A DNA stretch of 64,000 nt from an uncultured Chloroflexia bacterium (GCA_963766735.1 CAVYBU010000030.1:192001-256000); one strand, 5' to 3'; numbered from the stretch's first letter, positions 51,910 to 62,231 are shown. A program made the numbers and translations. Notes: a model not told the origin generated them from the sequence alone.

Positions 51910-53472
51910 GTGTCTGACCCTCGAGCACCCTCCGGTCCGCGTGCGGTCTGGCTTGACCGCGTCATGATCGGCGTCGTCATCGTCCTGACGCTCGGCACGG
52001 CTGCCTCCTTCCTCGTGCCCGATCTGCTCGCGGGCGTCTTCAATCCGTCGCTGGACCTCGTCATCCATACGATCGCCACGGTCGTGACGATCTCGGTCGC
52101 GGTGCTGGCCTGGGTACGCTTGCGCCAGGGGGGCGAGTCAGGCGCCGCGTTCCAGGCGGCCGCATTCCTGGTGCTCGCGATCGTCAACGTGCAAGCCATC
52201 CTGCTCGTCGTGACGGGCGCCGACGGCCAGGCAGGCATGCCAGCCGCATTGCCTAGCGACGCGCCGCTCTACATGCCGATGATCGTCCGCCTGTTCGCGG
52301 CCGCACTACTGGTGCTCGGCGGGCTCGCGTCCCTGCCCTCGGTTCGCATCCACCGCGCACTCATCGTCGCGCTCGGAGTGTCCGCCGCGATCCTGATCGT
52401 CATCACCCTCGTCGTGAAGGGGTCCGCGCCACTTCCGCCCGAGTGGATGATCGGGGTGGGTCTGCCGTCGCTGGTCACTGCGGACGCAGCGTGGCCGCTT
52501 CCGACTCCGATGGCGCTCGGTGCCGCCACGCAGGCGCTCGGGGCGGCACTGTTCCTGTGGGCGGCCGGACTGTTCTGGAGGCAGTACCACCGGGAAGGGC
52601 TGGTCGGCGATGGCTTCCTCGCGGTCGGGCTCGTCTTCGCAGCGTTTGCACAACTCCAGCCGGCTGCCTACCACGGCGCGTATGCGGGCCTGGTCACGAG
52701 CGGCGATCTGCTGCGCCTGGTCTTCGACGTGGTCCTCCTGGTCGGCATCCAGGCACAGGCGGGTGCGCACCTCGCGAGCCTCCGCCTGGCCAACGCGGCG
52801 ATGGCCCGGTCCAGGGAGACCGACGCGGAGCACGCCGCCCTCGAGGAGCGCGCACGCCTTTCGCGGGAGCTGCACGACGGCCTGGCACAGGACCTCTGGG
52901 TGGCGAAGCTCAAGACGAGGCGGCTGACCTCCCAGCCGGACCTCGGGCTCGAGGCGCGCGCACTCGCCGGCGAGCTGAGCGCTGCGATCGACGCCGGGCT
53001 CGCTGACGCGCAGCAGGCTGTGGCGGCCATGCGCATGCCCGGCGAGTCGGCCGCGACGTTCGGGGAGCTGATGGCGCGGTCCGTCGATGAGTTCGCGGAC
53101 CGGTTCGGCCTCCGTGTTGAGTTCGTGTGCGAGCAGGCGCTTCCGCCGCTCCCGGCGCGCGCCCAGGCCGAAGCGCTGCGGATCGCACGGGAGGCGCTCA
53201 TCAACGCGTCCCGTCACGCGGACGCGACGGTGGTCCGCGTGCGAGCAAGCGTGGAGGACGGCAGGCTCGTCATCGTGGTCGGTGACAATGGCCGAGGCTT
53301 CGACCAGAGCGCCGTGGGCCGCTCCGCGTTCGGGTTGGCGGGCATGCGAGAGCGGGCTGCCCAGATCGGCGCAGAGCTTCGCATCGACTCTCGGCCGCAC
53401 GACGGGACGCGGGTCAGCCTGTTCGTCCCGCTCACGGGCGCGGCAGTGCCGGTCATCGCTGGCGCCGGGTGA
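51910..53472 (+). CDS. membrane sensor histidine kinase (HisKA_3, NarX/DesK type)
   Basis: Multi-TM N-terminus; [36 protein letters not shown]. Confidence 0.92.
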
Positions 53473-54131
53473 CCACTCGGGCCCGCACCGGGCACCTCCG
53501 CGTCATGCTGGTCGACGACCACGCTCTGGTCCGGGCTGCGGTGCGTCAGGCGATCACCGCACCTGACGTGGAGCTCGTCGCGGAGGCATCAACCGCAGAG
53601 GAGGCGCTCGAGCTCGCGCCGCGGGTTCGCCCGGACGTGCTGCTCGTCGACATCGATCTGCCCGGGATGGACGGCGTGGCGCTCGTGCGTGAGCTGGCGC
53701 CCCGGCTTCCGGATACCCGGATCGTGATGCTCACCGTTTCGAGCGCAGACCGGCATCTCCTGGATGCGATGCGCTACGGGGCGAGCGGGTACCTGACCAA
53801 GAACCTGGACCCCGACGCCCTGCTCCGCGCCGTGCGAAGCGCACACGCGGGCGAGCTGGCGATGCCGCGGGGACTCGCCGCCCGGCTCGTCCACCGGCTC
53901 GTGGAAGCGTCCGGTCCGACGACGGATGCCGAGGATCCGGCCCTCGAGTCGCTCACGAGCCGCGAGGTGGAGGTTCTCGGCCTCCTTGCGGACGGCCTGA
54001 CCGACCGGGAGATCGCGGACTTGCTCACCATCTCGCCGCGCACGGTGGAGACGCACGTGAGCAGCGTGCTGCACAAGCTCGGGGCGCGGAACCGCGCCGA
54101 GGCTGCGCGCCGGTATCGCGAGCCGGTCTGA
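53469..54131 (+). CDS. NarL/LuxR family response regulator
   Basis: VDDH, D..LP.MDG, GYLTK, LT.RE.EVL, TVETHV. Confidence 0.95.
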
Positions 54132-54158: not shown

Positions 54159-54656
54159 TCAGCCCCTCGCGAACGCGCGCGCGGTCGCGACCTCGACCCG
54201 GAGCAGGCGGGGTTGCGCGACATCCAGCGAGACGCCCGTCCCACCGCACATGACCAGCAGCAGGCGCTCCCCGGACACCCCGACCTCCTCGATCTCCCCG
54301 AGGTTGAACGAGAGGGTCTGACGGCCGACGAGCACGAGCCGCCGTGAGGTCAGGTAGAGGTCGCCCGCGAGACCCAACGGCGCATCGGGGCCCGGGGTGG
54401 CGTGCCGCCGGTCGAGCTGGGCGGAGCGCCGCACCGCTACGACCCGTTCGCCAGGATCCAGCAGCGGGGCGACCGCCGCATCGGGCTCGAGCGAGGCCAT
54501 CGGCTGGGTGCGGTACGCCTCGCGAGCGAGGTCCGCGGCGGCATCGTCCGCTTGCGCGCGCACGATGATCGCCGACGCGTCCCGGATCGCCGGCGCGTCC
54601 GCTGGCGAGTCGTCGGGCGCGGTGACCTGGGCCTTCCGCCTGCTGAACCGCTCCAC
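54159..54656 (-). CDS. hypothetical protein (PH-like fold)
   Basis: L.PGE.V and G.LYLTSRRLV pattern typical of bacterial PH domains; start uncertain. Confidence 0.55.
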   Translation of the reverse strand: MERFSRRKAQVTAPDDSPADAPAIRDASAIIVRAQADDAAADLAREAYRTQPMASLEPDAAVAPLLDPGERVVAVRRSAQLDRRHATPGPDAPLGLAGDLYLTSRRLVLVGRQTLSFNLGEIEEVGVSGERLLLVMCGGTGVSLDVAQPRLLRVEVATARAFARG

Positions 54657-55532: not shown

Positions 55533-56402
55533 ATGACTCTGCGCAAGCTCGCCGGACTCCTCGCGGCGTTCGGCCTCACCGTCGGACTTATCGGAGGCGG
55601 CGTCGGTGCCGTCTTCCAGGACCAGGTCACCGCAACCGAGGAAATCAGCGTCGGTGACGTCGCGTGCGAGATCACCAGTGCGAGTCCTGCGGGCCCGGAC
55701 ATGGTGATCGCCGATGGCGGGAAATCCGTGACCTACACGCCTCCCATGATCACCAGCTCCGCAGCCAACGCTACCGGTCTCAAGTTCGACTTCACCGTGC
55801 AGAACACGGGCACCATCCCGGCGAACTTCACGGTCAATTCGCCTGACACCCAGGGATCGCAGTTCGCGACCCATGCGCCTGCGCCCAGCGGTCCCAACCC
55901 AGTCGCACCCGGTGCCTCGATCATCTACACGGGCGCCGGCGTCACCTGGGACGACCTCACGACTGAAGCAGGCATGAGCTACTCGTTCACGTGGACCGTG
56001 AACTGCGGCGAGGTGCCGCCCGTTCGACTTTGGAGCGCGGGGATCGCCGGTCCGGTTGACGCCGTGTTCCCCAGCACGATGGCAGCCAATGAGGCCAATG
56101 ACCTCCCCTACGCAACGGTCAATGACTCCACGATCACGTTCCAGAGCGTGACTCAAATCGCCGCCATGTGCATGGAGTACCGCTTCAACGACAACTCGCC
56201 CGACCAGAAGGTGTCCGACACCAACTACAACACGCTCGTCACCGACGGCCTGTGGCCGTTCCGGTGCTTCGGGTCAGGCTACAATTCGCCGTTTGCGACT
56301 GTCGCGATCCCGGACTGGGCCACGACCATCGAGGTCCGTCATTCGTTCGGCGGCGAGAGTGATTGGCGGTTCGGCTGGACTCGCTTCAACCTCCTGCCGT
56401 AA
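55533..56402 (+). CDS. secreted protein with SipW-cognate signal peptide (TasA/CalY-like fibre subunit candidate)
   Basis: MTLRK-hydrophobic-GGGVGAVFQD...ISVG; F.VQNTG.I beta-sandwich motif; directly downstream of sipW. Confidence 0.75.
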   Translation: MTLRKLAGLLAAFGLTVGLIGGGVGAVFQDQVTATEEISVGDVACEITSASPAGPDMVIADGGKSVTYTPPMITSSAANATGLKFDFTVQNTGTIPANFTVNSPDTQGSQFATHAPAPSGPNPVAPGASIIYTGAGVTWDDLTTEAGMSYSFTWTVNCGEVPPVRLWSAGIAGPVDAVFPSTMAANEANDLPYATVNDSTITFQSVTQIAAMCMEYRFNDNSPDQKVSDTNYNTLVTDGLWPFRCFGSGYNSPFATVAIPDWATTIEVRHSFGGESDWRFGWTRFNLLP

Positions 56403-56463
56403 CGGCATCAATCCGGGCGGCATTCGGGGGACGCCGCTGGTAGACGGCTTGTCCACAGAAGAG

Positions 56464-56495
56464 CCCAGCCCGGCGTGCGTTCACACCGGGCTGGG
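56464..56495 (+). terminator. intergenic stem-loop (partial terminator or mRNA stabiliser)
   Basis: CCCAGCCCGG-cgtg-cgtt-caca-CCGGGCTGGG, no U-tract. Confidence 0.5.
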
Positions 56496-56578
56496 TGACC
56501 CGTTCGGTTCTCGGTCGTCGACCCGACGACGTCGGAACGATCCACCAGCGTGATCAATCCCAGGAGAGACCGGAGTCA

Positions 56579-59500
56579 ATGAGCGGCACCCAGGTCCTGA
56601 GGCGCGTCCGCGGTACCGCCGCGGGCGCCTCAGCGCGCCTGGTAACGCCGCTGCCGCGACGCGGTCGCGCCTGGCGTCATGTCTTCGCCGCGATCAACTT
56701 GGTGCTCGTCACCGCGATCGCGGCCATCGTGCTCCTAGACCTCGGGATCGCCGGCAACCCGTGGTACCGCATCGTCGGGATCACGGGTGGTTCCATGGAG
56801 CCGGCAATCAGTCGCGGTGACCTGATCGTGATCGCGCCCGCTCCTCCTACGGTCGAGCCGGGCATGGTCCTCCTGATGTCCGTCGGCGGCAAGGTCATCA
56901 CGCATCGCGTGGCCGCCGTCAACGCCGACGGGTCGTTCGTGACCCGCGGTGACGCGAACAGGGTGACCGACGCCTGGTCGGGCCGACCGATCCGCGTCAA
57001 CGGCCTGTACGTCGCCACCATCCCCTGGCTCGGCCACATCCTGCCGATCAAGAGCGGCTCCGGCGCGTCCTTTGCCGATAACTCCAGCGCCGCGATGAAC
57101 ATCACCGTGGGCCCCTGGGCCACCGGGGTTGCTGCCACGCCGACGCAGGAGCCCCCGGCGAACGCAGCCGGCTGGAACAGCACCGACGTCGTCGTGACCT
57201 GGAACTGGTCCGACACGGGTGCGGGGATCGACCCCGCCACGTGCACGACGAGCAGCACCTCCAGCGGCGAGGGCGCACTGGCCCTCACGGCCTCGTGCAC
57301 GGACAAGGCCGGCGTCACCGGCAGCGCCTCCTACGCCGTGAACGTCGACAAGACGCCGCCCGCGGTGACGATCGACGGCCACCCGAACGACACAGGCGGC
57401 TCGACAACGGCCGCGTTCACGTTCGAGGCTGACGACATTGGCGGCAGCGGGCTCGACGCGCTCAGCTGCATGCTCGATGCGGGGCCGGCCACCACGTGCG
57501 ACACCCCCATGTCGCAACGCTATACCGGGCTTTCAGACGGCCCCCACACGTTCACCGTCACCGCGACCGACAGGGCCGGAAACCCCGGCCCGGCGACCTT
57601 CACCTGGTCCGTTGACGCGGTCGGGCCGGTCATCGCCCCGCATGATCCCGTGGCCGCCGAGGCCACCGGGCCGACGGGGGCGCTCGTCACGTACACCGAA
57701 CCCACGACCAGCGACGCAAATGACGGCCCCGGAGTCGCGACGTGCGTTCCGGCCACGGGCAGCCTGTTCGCCCTCGGCCCGACGACGGTGGCCTGCGACG
57801 CCACCGACGCTGCCGGCAACGCTGCCTCCCAGACCAGCTTCGTGATCACCGTCGTCGATACGACCGGCCCTGCCTTCGCGGCCCCGGCCGACCAGGAGAT
57901 CCCGTCGACCGGGCCGGAGGGCGCGGTCTCCACCTGGCCAGATCCGACGGCCACCGACGCGGTTGACGGCACCGACCCCGTGCACTGCCTGCCCGCCTCG
58001 GGCTCCACGTTCCCGGTTGGCTCGACCACCGTGACGTGTACCTCGACCGACGCGGCATCCAACACCACGACCCACACGTTCTCGGTCACCGTCGTCTCGG
58101 ACGCGCCGACCGCCGCGCCGGTCATCGAGCCGCATGGCGACGTTACGGCCGAGGCCACGGGTCCCGAGGGCGCCCAGGTGACGTACGACCCGCCCACGAC
58201 AAGCGATGAGCAGGACGGATCCGGCGTCGCGACCTGCGGCCCGGCCTCCGGCAGCCTGTTCCCTCTTGGGTCTACGACCATCCTTTGCGATGCCGTCGAT
58301 TCCGACGCGAACCATGCCGCGCAGACCCAGTTCAACGTCACGGTTCGCGACACCACGCCCCCCACCTTCGCGGCCCCGGCCGACCAGGAGATCCCGTCGA
58401 CCGGGCCGGAGGGCGCGGTCTCCACCTGGCCAGATCCGACGGCCACCGACGCGGTTGACGGCACCGACCCCGTGCACTGCCTGCCCGCCTCGGGCTCCAC
58501 GTTCCCGGTTGGCTCGACCACCGTGACGTGTACCTCGACCGACGCGGCATCCAACACCACGACCCACACGTTCTCGGTCACCGTCGTCTCGGACGCGCCG
58601 ACCGCCGCGCCGACGCAGGCGCCGGCCGCGAACGGCAACGGCTGGAACAACGCCGACGTCGTCGTGACCTGGCACTGGTCCAGCGCCGGGTCGACGATTG
58701 ACGCGGCCCAATGCACGGCCAGCTCCACGTCGAGCGGCGAGGGCACGCTCACCCTCACGGCCACGTGTGCGAACGTGGCCGGCAACGCCGGCACCGCCAC
58801 GTACGCCGTGAAGGTCGACAAGACGAAGCCCGCGGTCGCGATCACGGGCCAACCCACCAGCCCGAGCAGCTCGGGCTCGGCCTCGTTCACCTTCAGCGCC
58901 ACGGACGCCGGCAGCGGCATCGACACCGTCAGCTGCAAGCTCGACGCCGGCCCCGCTGCTCCGTGCGACACCGCGACCTCTCATGGCTACACGGGCCTCG
59001 ACGCCGGCTCGCACACGTTCACGGTCATCGCCACGGACCTGGCCGGCAACGACAGCCAGGCGACCTTCACCTGGTGCATCAAGACCGCGGGGCCATCGGT
59101 CACGGTCGACCACGAAGTCGACGGGTCCAACGGCTGGAACCGGTCGTCCCCCGTCGCCCTTGTCATCACGGTCACGCCAGCCACCGCGCCGGTCACGGCC
59201 CCGCCGGTCTGCACCGACAACGGCCAGCCGTTCTCGCTCACCGGCCAGGCATCGCCGTACGCGGCCACGGTCACAGGCGATGGTACGCACGAGATCAGGT
59301 GCAAGGTCACCGACACGGCTGGCGTCTCGGCCACCGGCACCGACCCCGTCAAGATCGACACGACACCGCCCAAGGTCACGGTCCCGGCCGACATCGACGT
59401 CGGATCGGTTGACAAGGACGGGGTGGCCGTCAGCTACGCCGCGACGTTCGGTGACGCCACCAGCGGCCTGGCGAAGAAGGCGTGCACGCCGGCCTCGGGC

Positions 59501-60079
59501 TCGACGTTCCCGATCGGGATCACGACGGTGACGTGCTCGGCGACCGACAAGGCCGGCAACAGCCAGTCGCGGTCATTCACGATCACGGTCAAGATCCAGA
59601 CGGCGGTCGAGGCGAGGCAGGCGATCCTCGTGAGCCTCCAGGACGAGCTGGCCTGCACGGCGAGCAAGAACCTGAGGAGCCGACTGTCCGATGCGATCGG
59701 GCACGTCCGCGACAGCCTCGCCGCCAGCCTCTGGGTGGCGACCGGGCGGTTCGCCGACGGCAATCACCTGGATCCCGTCAGCGGCGAGACGGTCTTCGAC
59801 GCGGACAGGGCTGCGGTCGAGGCGCTGACGGGGATCAAGAAGCCGTCGTTCGCCGTCAAGGCGGCGATCGCGGACCTTGCCGCGGCCGACGAGCTGCTTG
59901 CCCAGACGGCGATCGACGACGCGATTGCCGCGAACGCCGATCCCCGACTCATCAGCGCCGCCCAGGAGCAGATGACCGCCGCCGAGGGCGACGCGGCGAA
60001 GGGTCACTTCGACCTGGCGATCGACCACCGGAAGTCCGCGTGGAGCGACGTGACGCCTGCGCCTCTGCCCGCCAGTTGA
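56579..60079 (+). CDS. SipW-type peptidase fused to Ig-like/HYR repeat surface protein
   Basis: N-terminal TM, GGSMEP...GD, HRV, TRGDAN; then repeated D.TPP, C.PASGS.FP.G.T.VTC.ATD..GN (HYR) and Ig-like units; helical C-terminus. Confidence 0.88.
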   Translation: MSGTQVLRRVRGTAAGASARLVTPLPRRGRAWRHVFAAINLVLVTAIAAIVLLDLGIAGNPWYRIVGITGGSMEPAISRGDLIVIAPAPPTVEPGMVLLMSVGGKVITHRVAAVNADGSFVTRGDANRVTDAWSGRPIRVNGLYVATIPWLGHILPIKSGSGASFADNSSAAMNITVGPWATGVAATPTQEPPANAAGWNSTDVVVTWNWSDTGAGIDPATCTTSSTSSGEGALALTASCTDKAGVTGSASYAVNVDKTPPAVTIDGHPNDTGGSTTAAFTFEADDIGGSGLDALSCMLDAGPATTCDTPMSQRYTGLSDGPHTFTVTATDRAGNPGPATFTWSVDAVGPVIAPHDPVAAEATGPTGALVTYTEPTTSDANDGPGVATCVPATGSLFALGPTTVACDATDAAGNAASQTSFVITVVDTTGPAFAAPADQEIPSTGPEGAVSTWPDPTATDAVDGTDPVHCLPASGSTFPVGSTTVTCTSTDAASNTTTHTFSVTVVSDAPTAAPVIEPHGDVTAEATGPEGAQVTYDPPTTSDEQDGSGVATCGPASGSLFPLGSTTILCDAVDSDANHAAQTQFNVTVRDTTPPTFAAPADQEIPSTGPEGAVSTWPDPTATDAVDGTDPVHCLPASGSTFPVGSTTVTCTSTDAASNTTTHTFSVTVVSDAPTAAPTQAPAANGNGWNNADVVVTWHWSSAGSTIDAAQCTASSTSSGEGTLTLTATCANVAGNAGTATYAVKVDKTKPAVAITGQPTSPSSSGSASFTFSATDAGSGIDTVSCKLDAGPAAPCDTATSHGYTGLDAGSHTFTVIATDLAGNDSQATFTWCIKTAGPSVTVDHEVDGSNGWNRSSPVALVITVTPATAPVTAPPVCTDNGQPFSLTGQASPYAATVTGDGTHEIRCKVTDTAGVSATGTDPVKIDTTPPKVTVPADIDVGSVDKDGVAVSYAATFGDATSGLAKKACTPASGSTFPIGITTVTCSATDKAGNSQSRSFTITVKIQTAVEARQAILVSLQDELACTASKNLRSRLSDAIGHVRDSLAASLWVATGRFADGNHLDPVSGETVFDADRAAVEALTGIKKPSFAVKAAIADLAAADELLAQTAIDDAIAANADPRLISAAQEQMTAAEGDAAKGHFDLAIDHRKSAWSDVTPAPLPAS
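57873..58612 (+). repeat. exact 248-bp internal direct repeat (57873..58120 and 58365..58612)
   Basis: Identical HYR-coding blocks 492 bp apart. Confidence 0.9.
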
Positions 60080-60218: not shown

Positions 60219-60695
60219 ATGAACACGCTCGCAGGTCGGCTTCTCCGCGTTGCTCTTGTCGTCCTCCTGCTCGGAACCGTGTTCGTGCAGGTCCTCGTGC
60301 CCGTGCAGGCGACCATGGTGGGAACGAGCATCCCCGAAGTCGCCTACCTCGTCGCCCCGTATTCGACGGCCGCCATCCTCTTCATCGTCTGCGTCCAGGT
60401 GGCGCTGCTGGTCGTCTGGCGGCTGCTGTCCCTGGTCGACGGCGGGGTCATCTTCACCCACCGCGCCCTGCGCTGGGTCGATGTCATCATCACCTGCGCG
60501 GTGGTCGCCACGGTCCTGAGCGCAGCCGTCCTGATCCACATGCTCGGCTTCGTCCCCGGCGGCGGCGGACCGACGATCTACTTCATGCTCGCCTGCATCG
60601 CCGGCGGGCTGGCGTTCGTGCTCCTCATGATCGTCATGCGAGGCCTGCTCGAGTCGGCGATCGCCGACCGCACCGAGCTCGACGAGGTGATCTGA
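60219..60695 (+). CDS. DUF2975-like membrane protein
   Basis: Four TM segments, IF....LRW, C-terminal ELDEVI; paired with a Cro-type HTH gene. Confidence 0.82.
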   Translation: MNTLAGRLLRVALVVLLLGTVFVQVLVPVQATMVGTSIPEVAYLVAPYSTAAILFIVCVQVALLVVWRLLSLVDGGVIFTHRALRWVDVIITCAVVATVLSAAVLIHMLGFVPGGGGPTIYFMLACIAGGLAFVLLMIVMRGLLESAIADRTELDEVI

Positions 60696-60910
60696 TGGCC
60701 CTCATCGTCGAGCTCGACGTCATGCTCGCCCGGCGCAAGATGTCCGTGGGCGACTTTGCCAACGCCGTCGGCATCACCCCGGCGAACGTCGCCGTCCTGA
60801 AGAACGGGCGCGCCCGAGCGATCCGGTTCTCCACCCTGGACTCGATCTGCCGGGTGCTCGAGTGCCAGCCGGGTGACATCCTCCGGTGGACCGCCGACCC
60901 GCCCGCCTAG
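60695..60910 (+). CDS. YozG-like Cro/C1 HTH regulator
   Basis: LDVMLA.RKM, GIT.AN..LK.G.A.AIRFSTL..IC..L.CQPGD. Confidence 0.92.
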   Translation: MALIVELDVMLARRKMSVGDFANAVGITPANVAVLKNGRARAIRFSTLDSICRVLECQPGDILRWTADPPA

Positions 60911-61613: not shown

Positions 61614-62231
61614 ATGGAAACCCTGGCGATAACGTCGATCACCAACTTCGTCCTGGCCAGCGAGCTCTTCTTCCTGGCCGGCCTGATGGTGAAGACCCCG
61701 AAGGCCCGCTTCTCGGCGGCCTGGTTCTGGGGCGGGGCCATGTTCGCTCTGGCGTCGAGCGCGCTCATCGGCGGCATCGACCATGGCTTCGTCGAGCCGG
61801 CCGGGCTGTCGCGCTACTTCATCCAGCGGCCGAACTGGATCGTTGCGGGCGTGGCGACGTTCTGCATGCTGCTTGCGACGGCGCGGCAGTTCTTCCCACC
61901 CCGCTGGCAGCGGACTGCGCTGATCCTGGGAGCGATCCAGCTCATCGTCTACGTCATCGCCGTCCTGCTGATCGGCGACTTCCGGATCGTCATCGTCAAC
62001 TACCTGCCCGTGATGCTCCTCCTGCTGCTGTTGAGCGTCCTCAGGCTGAGGCACGGCACCGGCTCCTGGCAGATGGTCGTGGGCGTCCTCGTGCTCCTGG
62101 CCGCCTCAGCCGTCCAGGTCCTCGGCGTGGACCTGTTCAACCCGGTGGATCGGAACGGCCTGTACCACACGATCTCCATGGTGGGCGTGCTGTTCATGTA
62201 CTGGGGTGGACAGCGCCTGAAGGTGTCCTGA
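61614..62231 (+). CDS. multi-pass membrane protein (DUF6962-like)
   Basis: About 7 TM segments; GG..HG and N..YH motifs. Confidence 0.7.
   Translation: METLAITSITNFVLASELFFLAGLMVKTPKARFSAAWFWGGAMFALASSALIGGIDHGFVEPAGLSRYFIQRPNWIVAGVATFCMLLATARQFFPPRWQRTALILGAIQLIVYVIAVLLIGDFRIVIVNYLPVMLLLLLLSVLRLRHGTGSWQMVVGVLVLLAASAVQVLGVDLFNPVDRNGLYHTISMVGVLFMYWGGQRLKVS

Follow-up and report, generated by a model that had tools for sequence, protein, structure and literature searches.

P0001 is an open reading frame (ORF) on the + strand (56579–60079) of a 64,000-nucleotide (nt) stretch of DNA from an uncultured Chloroflexia bacterium (GCA_963766735.1, CAVYBU010000030.1:192001-256000). We call the whole analysed stretch the window and count coordinates from its first letter; features are on the + strand unless stated otherwise. 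The translated product of 1166 amino acids (aa) begins as a signal peptidase of the SipW type, continues without interruption into a junction that resembles the mature N-terminus of the adjacent gene product, P0003, and ends in a long adhesin-like passenger. From sequence comparisons and structure models we give somewhat better than even chances to the reading that P0001 is a SipW-type peptidase fused to a TapA-like initiator or adhesin, which would be cut at Ala163↓Ser164 (the arrow marks the scissile bond) and would dock to P0003. A preliminary description of this DNA had proposed that the peptidase domain serves as both export signal and protease and releases a stalked adhesin, whose new N-terminal strand plugs into the end of a fibre. 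That overall interpretation is partly supported.

A SipW-type peptidase lacking its second membrane helix

The S26B catalytic domain was placed at residues 38–157 (56690–57049) by the TIGR02228 model, alignments, an AlphaFold2 (AF2) model and a fold search. TIGR02228 describes archaeal/SipW-type signal peptidase I and has a curated cut-off of 51.85 bits; residues 38–157 scored 52.2 bits, barely above it, and 56.7 bits in a six-frame search of the genome. The catalytic codons are those of Ser72 (56792–56794), His109 (56903–56905) and Asp125 (56951–56953). Ser72 (in the motif GGSM), Asp125 and Asn127 (RGDAN) and Asp131 were invariant in a 78-sequence alignment, with His109 (HRV) nearly so (at least 90%), and all five were invariant in a 5-sequence alignment. 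With the family score above its cut-off and the catalytic residues kept, the domain is as intact as the preliminary description had it.

That description also had P0001 lacking the C-terminal membrane helix where SipW normally has one; we take B. subtilis SipW to have such a helix. The stand-alone peptidase of the same locus, P0002 (54921–55487; TIGR02228, 82.7 bits), has both N- and C-terminal membrane helices. Past the core motif IPWLG, P0002 enters a membrane helix and P0001 does not. The maximum 19-residue Kyte-Doolittle mean (KD19), taken for the second helix 20–80 aa after GDAN, was 2.64 in P0002, whose hydrophobic C-terminal segment comprises residues 142–181, versus 0.81 in P0001, confirming the absence. 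By sequence, catalytic residues and fold P0001 belongs to S26B, and its second helix is absent.

An AF2 model of residues 1–280, built with 78 aligned rows, agreed with the sequence on an N-terminal membrane helix at residues 30–58 (56666–56752), preceded by an Arg-rich cytoplasmic tail. In the model the peptidase core has a predicted local distance difference test score (pLDDT) above 92, and an Ig-like domain follows residues 171–200. Mean pLDDT is 86 for residues 151–160 and 68 for residues 161–170. A short strand forms at residues 160–162 (P4–P2), and the junction is modelled as packing on the peptidase domain. By the positive-inside rule the catalytic domain would lie outside the membrane. 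The best match among solved folds was human SEC11C (7p2q_A; E 7.1e-5; template modelling (TM) score 0.55 on the target; 27% identity), with further matches to LexA/UmuD (UmuD′, 1umu_A, TM 0.65 on the target) and to the pilus-assembly protein SipA (4n31_A).

The passenger (57119–60076), delimited by Pfam, NCBIfam and hydropathy, is made of Ig-like repeats, with five HYR, three Big_13 and three OmpL47-type barrel domains assigned from Pfam and NCBIfam, followed by a C-terminal portion of ~160 aa without a family. We found no LPXTG in P0001, and the KD19 of its last 200 aa reached at most 1.16, i.e. no late membrane helix, which upholds the earlier picture of about 1000 aa of Ig-like/HYR repeats without a cell-wall anchor. 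Residues 1000–1166 gave no Pfam or NCBIfam match, and the best ESM Atlas match, a ‘hypothetical protein’ at 0.78, was below the meaningful level. The HYR region holds a perfect direct repeat of 246 nt (57875–58120 and 58367–58612; 246/246 nt identical, 82 aa). Either this is a recent duplication, or the short reads of this assembly leave the number of HYR copies uncertain.

The junction resembles the N-terminus of P0003

P0001 runs from the peptidase directly into ILPIKSGSGA↓SFADNSSAAMNITVGPW. The junction as a whole (57062–57118), delimited from sequence, profile and models, consists of the predicted cut Ser161-Gly162-Ala163↓Ser164-Phe165, with the scissile bond falling between 57067 and 57068, and a donor-strand-like segment at residues 164–180. 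Positions 57062–57112 encode GASFADNSSAAMNITVG (P0001 residues 162–178), and positions 55605–55655 encode GAVFQDQVTATEEISVG (P0003 residues 25–41). These two 17-mers, whose gap-free match had been noticed at the outset, do align without gaps and are identical at 8 of 17 positions. Both proteins have small residues at −3 and −1 and an aromatic residue at P2′ (S161-G-A163↓S-F165 in P0001; V24-G-A26↓V-F28 in P0003). The available part of one study reports that TasA has Phe at P2′ and that SipW is required (PMC10269814), for which reason we read the junction Phe as a SipW signature. P0003 has a hydrophobic signal peptide (residues 1–26) directly before its cleavage motif; in P0001 the peptidase domain stands in that place, and at the junction there is no signal peptide or start-codon context.

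To rank the junction within the source genome we used a 27-column profile, spanning the end of the signal peptide and the mature N-terminus, that was built solely from P0003 homologues of other genomes. Against 32,187 six-frame ORFs (5.83 million residues) P0003 ranked first and the P0001 junction second. We regard this match as more than chance because it is sited exactly at the end of the S26B domain, in the gene adjoining P0003, and is kept in orthologues, where the junction reads NTSAA↓TFRDGVTAAMHLTVGPF (P0004) and GASEA↓TFVDRVTAGMTITAG (genome G030). A 62-aa fragment of P0001 containing the junction matched no NCBIfam model, including TIGR04088, the cognate_SipW signal peptide model.

P0003 (55533–56402; 289 aa) is, from its sequence, profiles and a fold model, a candidate major fibre subunit. 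It comprises a SipW-type signal peptide (predicted cut Ala26↓Val27), an N-terminal strand (27–44), an Ig-like beta-sandwich (45–160) and a beta domain (180–289). The monomer model, based on 36 aligned rows (mean pLDDT 77.6), has a signal helix and leaves residues 27–44 unstructured (pLDDT 49–60) before the confident sandwich of 45–160.

The complex of mature P0003 (27–289) with P0001 residues 164–200 was predicted in three runs, along with three controls. Scores were 0.78, 0.83 and 0.80 (median 0.80), and the best of the controls scored 0.00. Of 80 solved complexes 58 attain the pass mark, as do 2 of 110 mismatched pairs; we supplied our own alignments, which makes these counts approximate. 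At least 99% of contacts agreed among runs, partner pLDDT was at least 63, and the P0001 interface consisted of exactly residues 164–180. The closest contacts put P0001 171–174 between P0003 strands 66–69 and 150–155, a donor-strand-like geometry. P0001 164–180 is therefore predicted to dock as a strand in the sandwich of the P0003 N-domain, in line with the earlier suggestion that the post-cleavage peptide inserts into the protein encoded from 55533.

A large family of fused peptidases

Word-indexed searching for homologues returned 42 matches, most of them owed to the Ig-like domain that follows residue 185, and the sole true fused orthologue among them was P0004. Other candidates were set aside: P0044 is an S26B fusion but keeps the second helix, P0026-28 are S26B proteins but carry the peptidase at the C-terminal end, and P0024 matched through its Ig-like domain only. 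Searched against 1.84 billion representatives (50% identity), a profile covering residues 1–185 of three orthologues gave 15,534 matches at E ≤1e-3, of which 86 reached E ≤1e-30. Among the best 150 of these 15,534 representatives, 119 had GDAN with at least 60 aa after it; a membrane-helix-like segment after GDAN was present in one and absent in 118 of the 119, and 97 of the 119 ran on for at least 100 aa.

We counted the junction motif in a set of 120 sequences, namely those representatives in which at least 65 aa follow GDAN, together with P0001 and P0004. The pattern [small]-x-Ala↓x-[F/W/Y], 28–65 aa after GDAN, was present in 86 of 120, versus 34 of 415 other windows of the same proteins (8%), and most of the misses, SGSWF and TGGWY for example, came close to the pattern. 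The commonest junctions were SEA↓SFAD, SAA↓TFTD and SGA↓WF.D, usually with G-x-W 10–14 residues on. The proposed combination of an S26B domain, an A-x-F-x-D-like motif and a passenger thus characterizes a large family, and the internal motif is conserved in homologues, both P0004 and G030 included.

Behind the constant junction the passengers vary: HYR/Ig domains, RTX-like GGxGxD repeats, a ‘VRIxPxTINL’ domain and Pro/Thr-rich tails were all seen. In P0086 (310 aa) the junction is followed by a linker rich in Pro, Thr and Ser, then a hydrophobic helix and an Arg-rich tail at the C-terminal end. Once cleaved, such a protein would be anchored in the membrane and have a donor-like N-terminus, making it a candidate fibre anchor. 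The database name of the fused family members is just ‘signal peptidase I’.

Four fusions keep the second helix, followed by a basic loop on the cytoplasmic side and by a second, complete signal peptide ahead of a site of the A↓xF type: those of G006 (L017 5510–12406), G031 (L018 2848–4089) and G029 (L019 3587–4858), and P0044. The G006 fusion is 2298 aa long and its passenger has autotransporter-like repeats; G006, G029 and G031 belong to the same genus, and P0044 to Acidimicrobiales. These four are likely intermediates that precede the loss of both hydrophobic segments.

Gene order and co-variation with the neighbour

P0002, P0003 and P0001 are co-directional. A stand-alone peptidase, one or two P0003-like genes and a fused peptidase occur in this order, by tblastn, in the window and in L022, L023, L024, L025 and L026; G219 (L054) has the order too. 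The carriers of this cassette are related Chloroflexota (Limnocylindria). The fused-type frame of L026 (6938–7438) ends 45 residues after GDAN, without a junction, and may be a truncated or decayed copy. In G030 a different SipW-type substrate of 208 aa comes first, then the peptidase, then the fusion. Of 9 loci looked at, 8 had a separate SipW-type peptidase next to the fused gene.

After the cut, the consensus of the P0003 family is xFxDQVTATENIxVGTF, and that of the fused junctions is xFxDxVxAxMxITVGP[FW]; common to both is A↓xFxDxVxAxxxIxVGx[FW]. The divergent locus G201/L055, from the same class but another family, is instructive here. Its neighbour gene encodes a true Peptidase_M73 (TasA/camelysin) protein (31.9 bits, cut-off 22.5, covering positions 8–193 of 196), which begins SGA↓WFTDSDAVAVTATSG, and its fused junction reads TGA↓WATDADSIAASAVSG. 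The G201 junction is identical to its own neighbour at 8 of 17 positions, versus 1–3 of 17 for six neighbours of the window type. These comparisons support the view that the junction follows the mature N-terminus of its neighbour across divergent loci. In G201 (96% complete) the fused enzyme, at 68.9 bits, is the only TIGR02228 match over the cut-off, the next scoring 20.5; we infer that it must therefore serve the TasA-family neighbour.

An unusually multiplied cassette of ordinary SipW-type peptidases was noted at L050 283–7364 (G086:C56), with four in tandem, each with a second helix. They adjoin four tandem proteins with an N-terminal motif of the SipW-substrate type (G↓TFAQFNAVTTNxxNTFSTG).

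Proposed mechanism

We propose that the Arg-rich N-terminus and helix 30–58 of P0001 would act as a signal anchor and that, judging from topology, the peptidase domain would be exported together with the whole passenger. S26B activity, its own or that of the adjacent P0002, would then cut Ser161-x-Ala163↓Ser164-Phe165. The cut would free an HYR/Ig-like adhesin of ~1000 aa, the new N-terminus of which (164–180) would copy the N-terminal strand of P0003 and is predicted to slot between two beta-strands of the P0003 N-domain. The adhesin would in this way join a P0003 assembly at one of its ends and may nucleate that assembly, as TapA nucleates TasA. A protein that only donates can fit only at the end of a polar fibre that presents the groove, an end that may be distal or not according to the site of subunit addition. 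The peptidase stub would remain in the membrane as a single-helix enzyme, perhaps also able to process P0003-type substrates. We take the stub for an active peptidase because the catalytic residues are conserved and because G201 is without another SipW-type enzyme. Our main argument for cleavage is that the conserved −3 and −1 residues sit outside the predicted docking interface, and therefore point to proteolysis.

A bolder form of this mechanism, which we think unlikely, makes the peptidase a self-removing export leader and afterwards a platform for fibre assembly. Autoproteolysis in cis at Ala163↓Ser164 would yield a single-helix SipW-type enzyme and an initiator adhesin at a ratio of 1:1, with the adhesin near the active site. 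The first P0003 cut by the same enzyme would be caught at once by the initiator strand, and each fibre would be nucleated, and perhaps fed, at its own peptidase, an usher-like role. Sec export would then occur without a signal peptide, and the varied passengers would be interchangeable fibre ends.

Several results weigh against cleavage and docking to a polymerising P0003. The complex prediction does not separate a cleaved from an uncleaved strand, since an internal strand could dock equally. P0001 residues 171–200 have a pLDDT of only ~50 in the monomer model, and the profile match of the junction (12.5 bits, E 0.19) is weak alone. P0003 scored 16.2 bits with TIGR04088, below the cut-off of 19 (neighbours in L021 and L022 scored 18.4 and 15.9), and 15.6 bits with Pfam PF12389, Peptidase_M73, below the cut-off of 22.5 and over residues 4–47 only, which is the signal peptide. 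Fold searches of P0003 with Foldseek and VIA gave generic Ig/MSP/PapD-like folds only (TM ≤0.27, Z ≤7.5); no TasA, AbpA or pilin stood out in them, and they neither support nor exclude a relationship with TasA. On these results P0003 cannot be assigned to the TasA family and is a candidate polymerising protein at most; as its scores fall under the TasA and TIGR04088 thresholds, we claim that it works like TasA, not that it is a member. The co-variation argument draws chiefly on G201, a single divergent locus; those of the window type are close kin and are not independent. Finally, the profile that ranked the best 150 representatives included the junction and enriched them for it; they show that the fused class is large, and say nothing of its frequency among S26B enzymes.

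Alternative explanations

The junction might never be cut. Its strand would then dock while tethered, helix 30–58 would hold the base of the fibre at the membrane, the peptidase would process incoming P0003, and the HYR stalk would project alongside the fibre. TapA and AbpB are discussed as anchoring components in the available parts of two papers (PMC9245690, PMC10151520), the P0001 passenger is without an anchor of its own, and the complex prediction fits a tethered strand just as well. Internal strands can complement, as they do in chaperones of the chaperone-usher systems. Permanent tethering is hard to reconcile with the small −3/−1 residues and aromatic P2′ kept in 86 of 120 family members, though −3 and −1 lie outside the predicted interface. 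It would also make the C-terminal membrane anchor of P0086 redundant, and the complete second signal peptide kept in G006, G029, G031 and P0044 implies that, ancestrally, the passenger was released. We consider an uncleaved anchor or nucleator doubtful. Less probable still is that the junction is a pseudo-substrate or a relic of fusion, which occupies or regulates the active site, or replaces the second helix, and donates no strand; P0001 would then be merely a membrane-anchored adhesin/peptidase. The short P4–P2 strand, which AF2 places against the peptidase domain, would fit, as would the statistical weakness of the junction match when taken alone and the generic fold matches of P0003, a putative polymerising protein. 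A pseudo-substrate needs residues on the P side only, yet conservation extends over residues +1 to +17, which track the N-terminus of the neighbour; the complex prediction passed while its controls scored zero, and the three-gene synteny is kept.

The chance that a frameshift or misassembly has joined a peptidase gene to a separate adhesin gene is virtually nil, although the perfect 246-nt repeat in the passenger makes the region hard for short-read assembly. In three coded sequencing runs, short contigs extend across the junction: X1 (56970–57120) and X2 (56954–57104) with 0 differences, and X4 (57035–57200) with 16 differences; no contig covers the entire 801-nt stretch. The fused frame also occurs in P0004, G030, G219, G201, L022-L025 and ~100 representative clusters, and the missing signal peptide and start-codon context at the junction likewise speak against two separate genes. 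Because contigs of three runs span the junction and independent genomes share the fusion, misassembly is excluded for practical purposes, and the preliminary description was right to treat the fusion as real.

Other features of the locus

The G+C content of the window is ~70%. Two observations support the P0001 start at the ATG at 56579: GGAGAG lies ~10 nt upstream, and orthologues begin at an equal position (profile positions 1–184). Upstream of the cassette lie a sensor histidine kinase (51910–53472; Pfam HisKA_3 and HATPase_c) and a LuxR/GerE-type response regulator (53469–54131; Pfam Response_reg 94.9 bits, GerE 69.2 bits), and such a pair is also found beside the cassette in G030 (L016 9400–11987). 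A 165-aa ORF without an assignment on the opposite strand (54159–54656) is likewise kept in G030.

Between the P0003 stop and the P0001 start is a GC-rich hairpin (56463–56496) of 14 pairs with a centroid energy of −28.6 kcal/mol and a z of −2.65; equally good folding occurred in 4 of 200 shuffles. It could possibly serve as an attenuator, with less read-through, or as a stabiliser of the upstream messenger RNA, and in either role the major subunit would outnumber the fused protein. We rejected it as a terminator: the scan flagged the minus strand only, and the plus strand is without a clear T-run.

Downstream of P0001 a DUF2975 membrane protein (87.9 bits) is followed at once by a small Cro/C1-type helix-turn-helix (HTH) protein (HTH_26, 75.6 bits) at 60219–60910; this pair is probably unrelated to the cassette. 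DUF6962 follows at 61614–62231.

Relation to known systems

As far as the available portions of the literature describe it, the B. subtilis tapA-sipW-tasA system is like this locus in encoding a dedicated archaeal/endoplasmic reticulum-type peptidase beside its substrates, in the P2′ Phe of these substrates, and in having a major subunit with an N-terminal donor strand that is mimicked by a minor protein with an unrelated body. TapA is described there as donating its N-terminus to TasA, with TapA residues 44–57 sufficing for biofilm formation (PMC10151520), and the tapA and sipW genes overlap (PMC10151520, PMC9674648). Here, by contrast, peptidase and accessory protein form one polypeptide, peptidase first; the accessory part of P0001 is without its own signal peptide and the peptidase without its second membrane helix. 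P0003, unlike the G201 neighbour, is not a recognisable TasA/camelysin protein, and we saw no sequence homology of P0001 to TapA.

Other loci of the TasA superfamily (AbpA/AbpB, AbpX, Tafi) are reported, in the parts of the sources available, to combine signal peptidase I, a major donor-strand subunit, tip, minor or anchor proteins and two-component regulators; donor-strand complementation is the predicted means by which their tip proteins attach, and a fusion of signal peptidase I to a DUF5305 accessory protein has been noted (bioRxiv 10.64898/2026.01.04.697558, PMC9245690). In that fusion the partner is an accessory subunit, whereas the P0001 peptidase is fused to a substrate-like tip or initiator protein, and what is available of these accounts mentions no peptidase directly followed by its own cleavage motif.

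Proteins of the S24 family, in the same clan as S26, share the fold of the catalytic core, as seen in the matches to UmuD′ and to C-terminal domains of LexA. LexA, UmuD and lambda cI cleave a site in their own chain, in cis or in trans. They differ from P0001 in being cytoplasmic, in using a Ser-Lys pair and in having the cleavage site N-terminal to the core, and their cleavage switches a regulator on or off, unlike the release of an exported passenger. SipA/LepA of S. pyogenes is an S26-fold protein needed for polymerisation of a pilus (function according to the title of entry 4n31_A), but it serves sortase-type pili, is not fused to a pilus component and is presumably without catalytic activity. 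Type V pili (Mfa1/FimA of Porphyromonas) are alike in that a cut precedes strand exchange; the source, as far as available, describes proteolysis as making the terminus or groove for that exchange (PMC9674648). They depend on a separate gingipain, are built of diderm lipoprotein subunits and have no peptidase-subunit fusion.

The preliminary description had known of no such architecture in the literature. The available portions of the literature searched contain no description of it, though supplementary gene-neighbourhood figures might show such genes unremarked, and no model in the Pfam and NCBIfam libraries covers the junction or the fused class; to that extent the claim stands. Uniqueness does not, given a large family and related fusions. 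What sets this locus apart, and is apparently undescribed, is a peptidase fused directly to a substrate-like initiator, with neither a signal peptide nor a second helix between them.

If the cut occurs, the locus would embody a design for secretion and assembly without a counterpart in the literature searched: a signal peptidase would be the cleavable leader of its own substrate, and the roles of SipW and TapA would be united in one gene. The peptidase with its junction could serve as a compact tag to export and release arbitrary passengers, and the junction motif would provide a rule by which fibre-end proteins could be recognised from sequence, in uncultured Chloroflexota and elsewhere. The proposal would explain at least 118 clusters at 50% identity that are labelled only ‘signal peptidase I’ and, if true, would offer a way to test how monoderm-type bacteria start and cap their chaperone-free donor-strand fibres.

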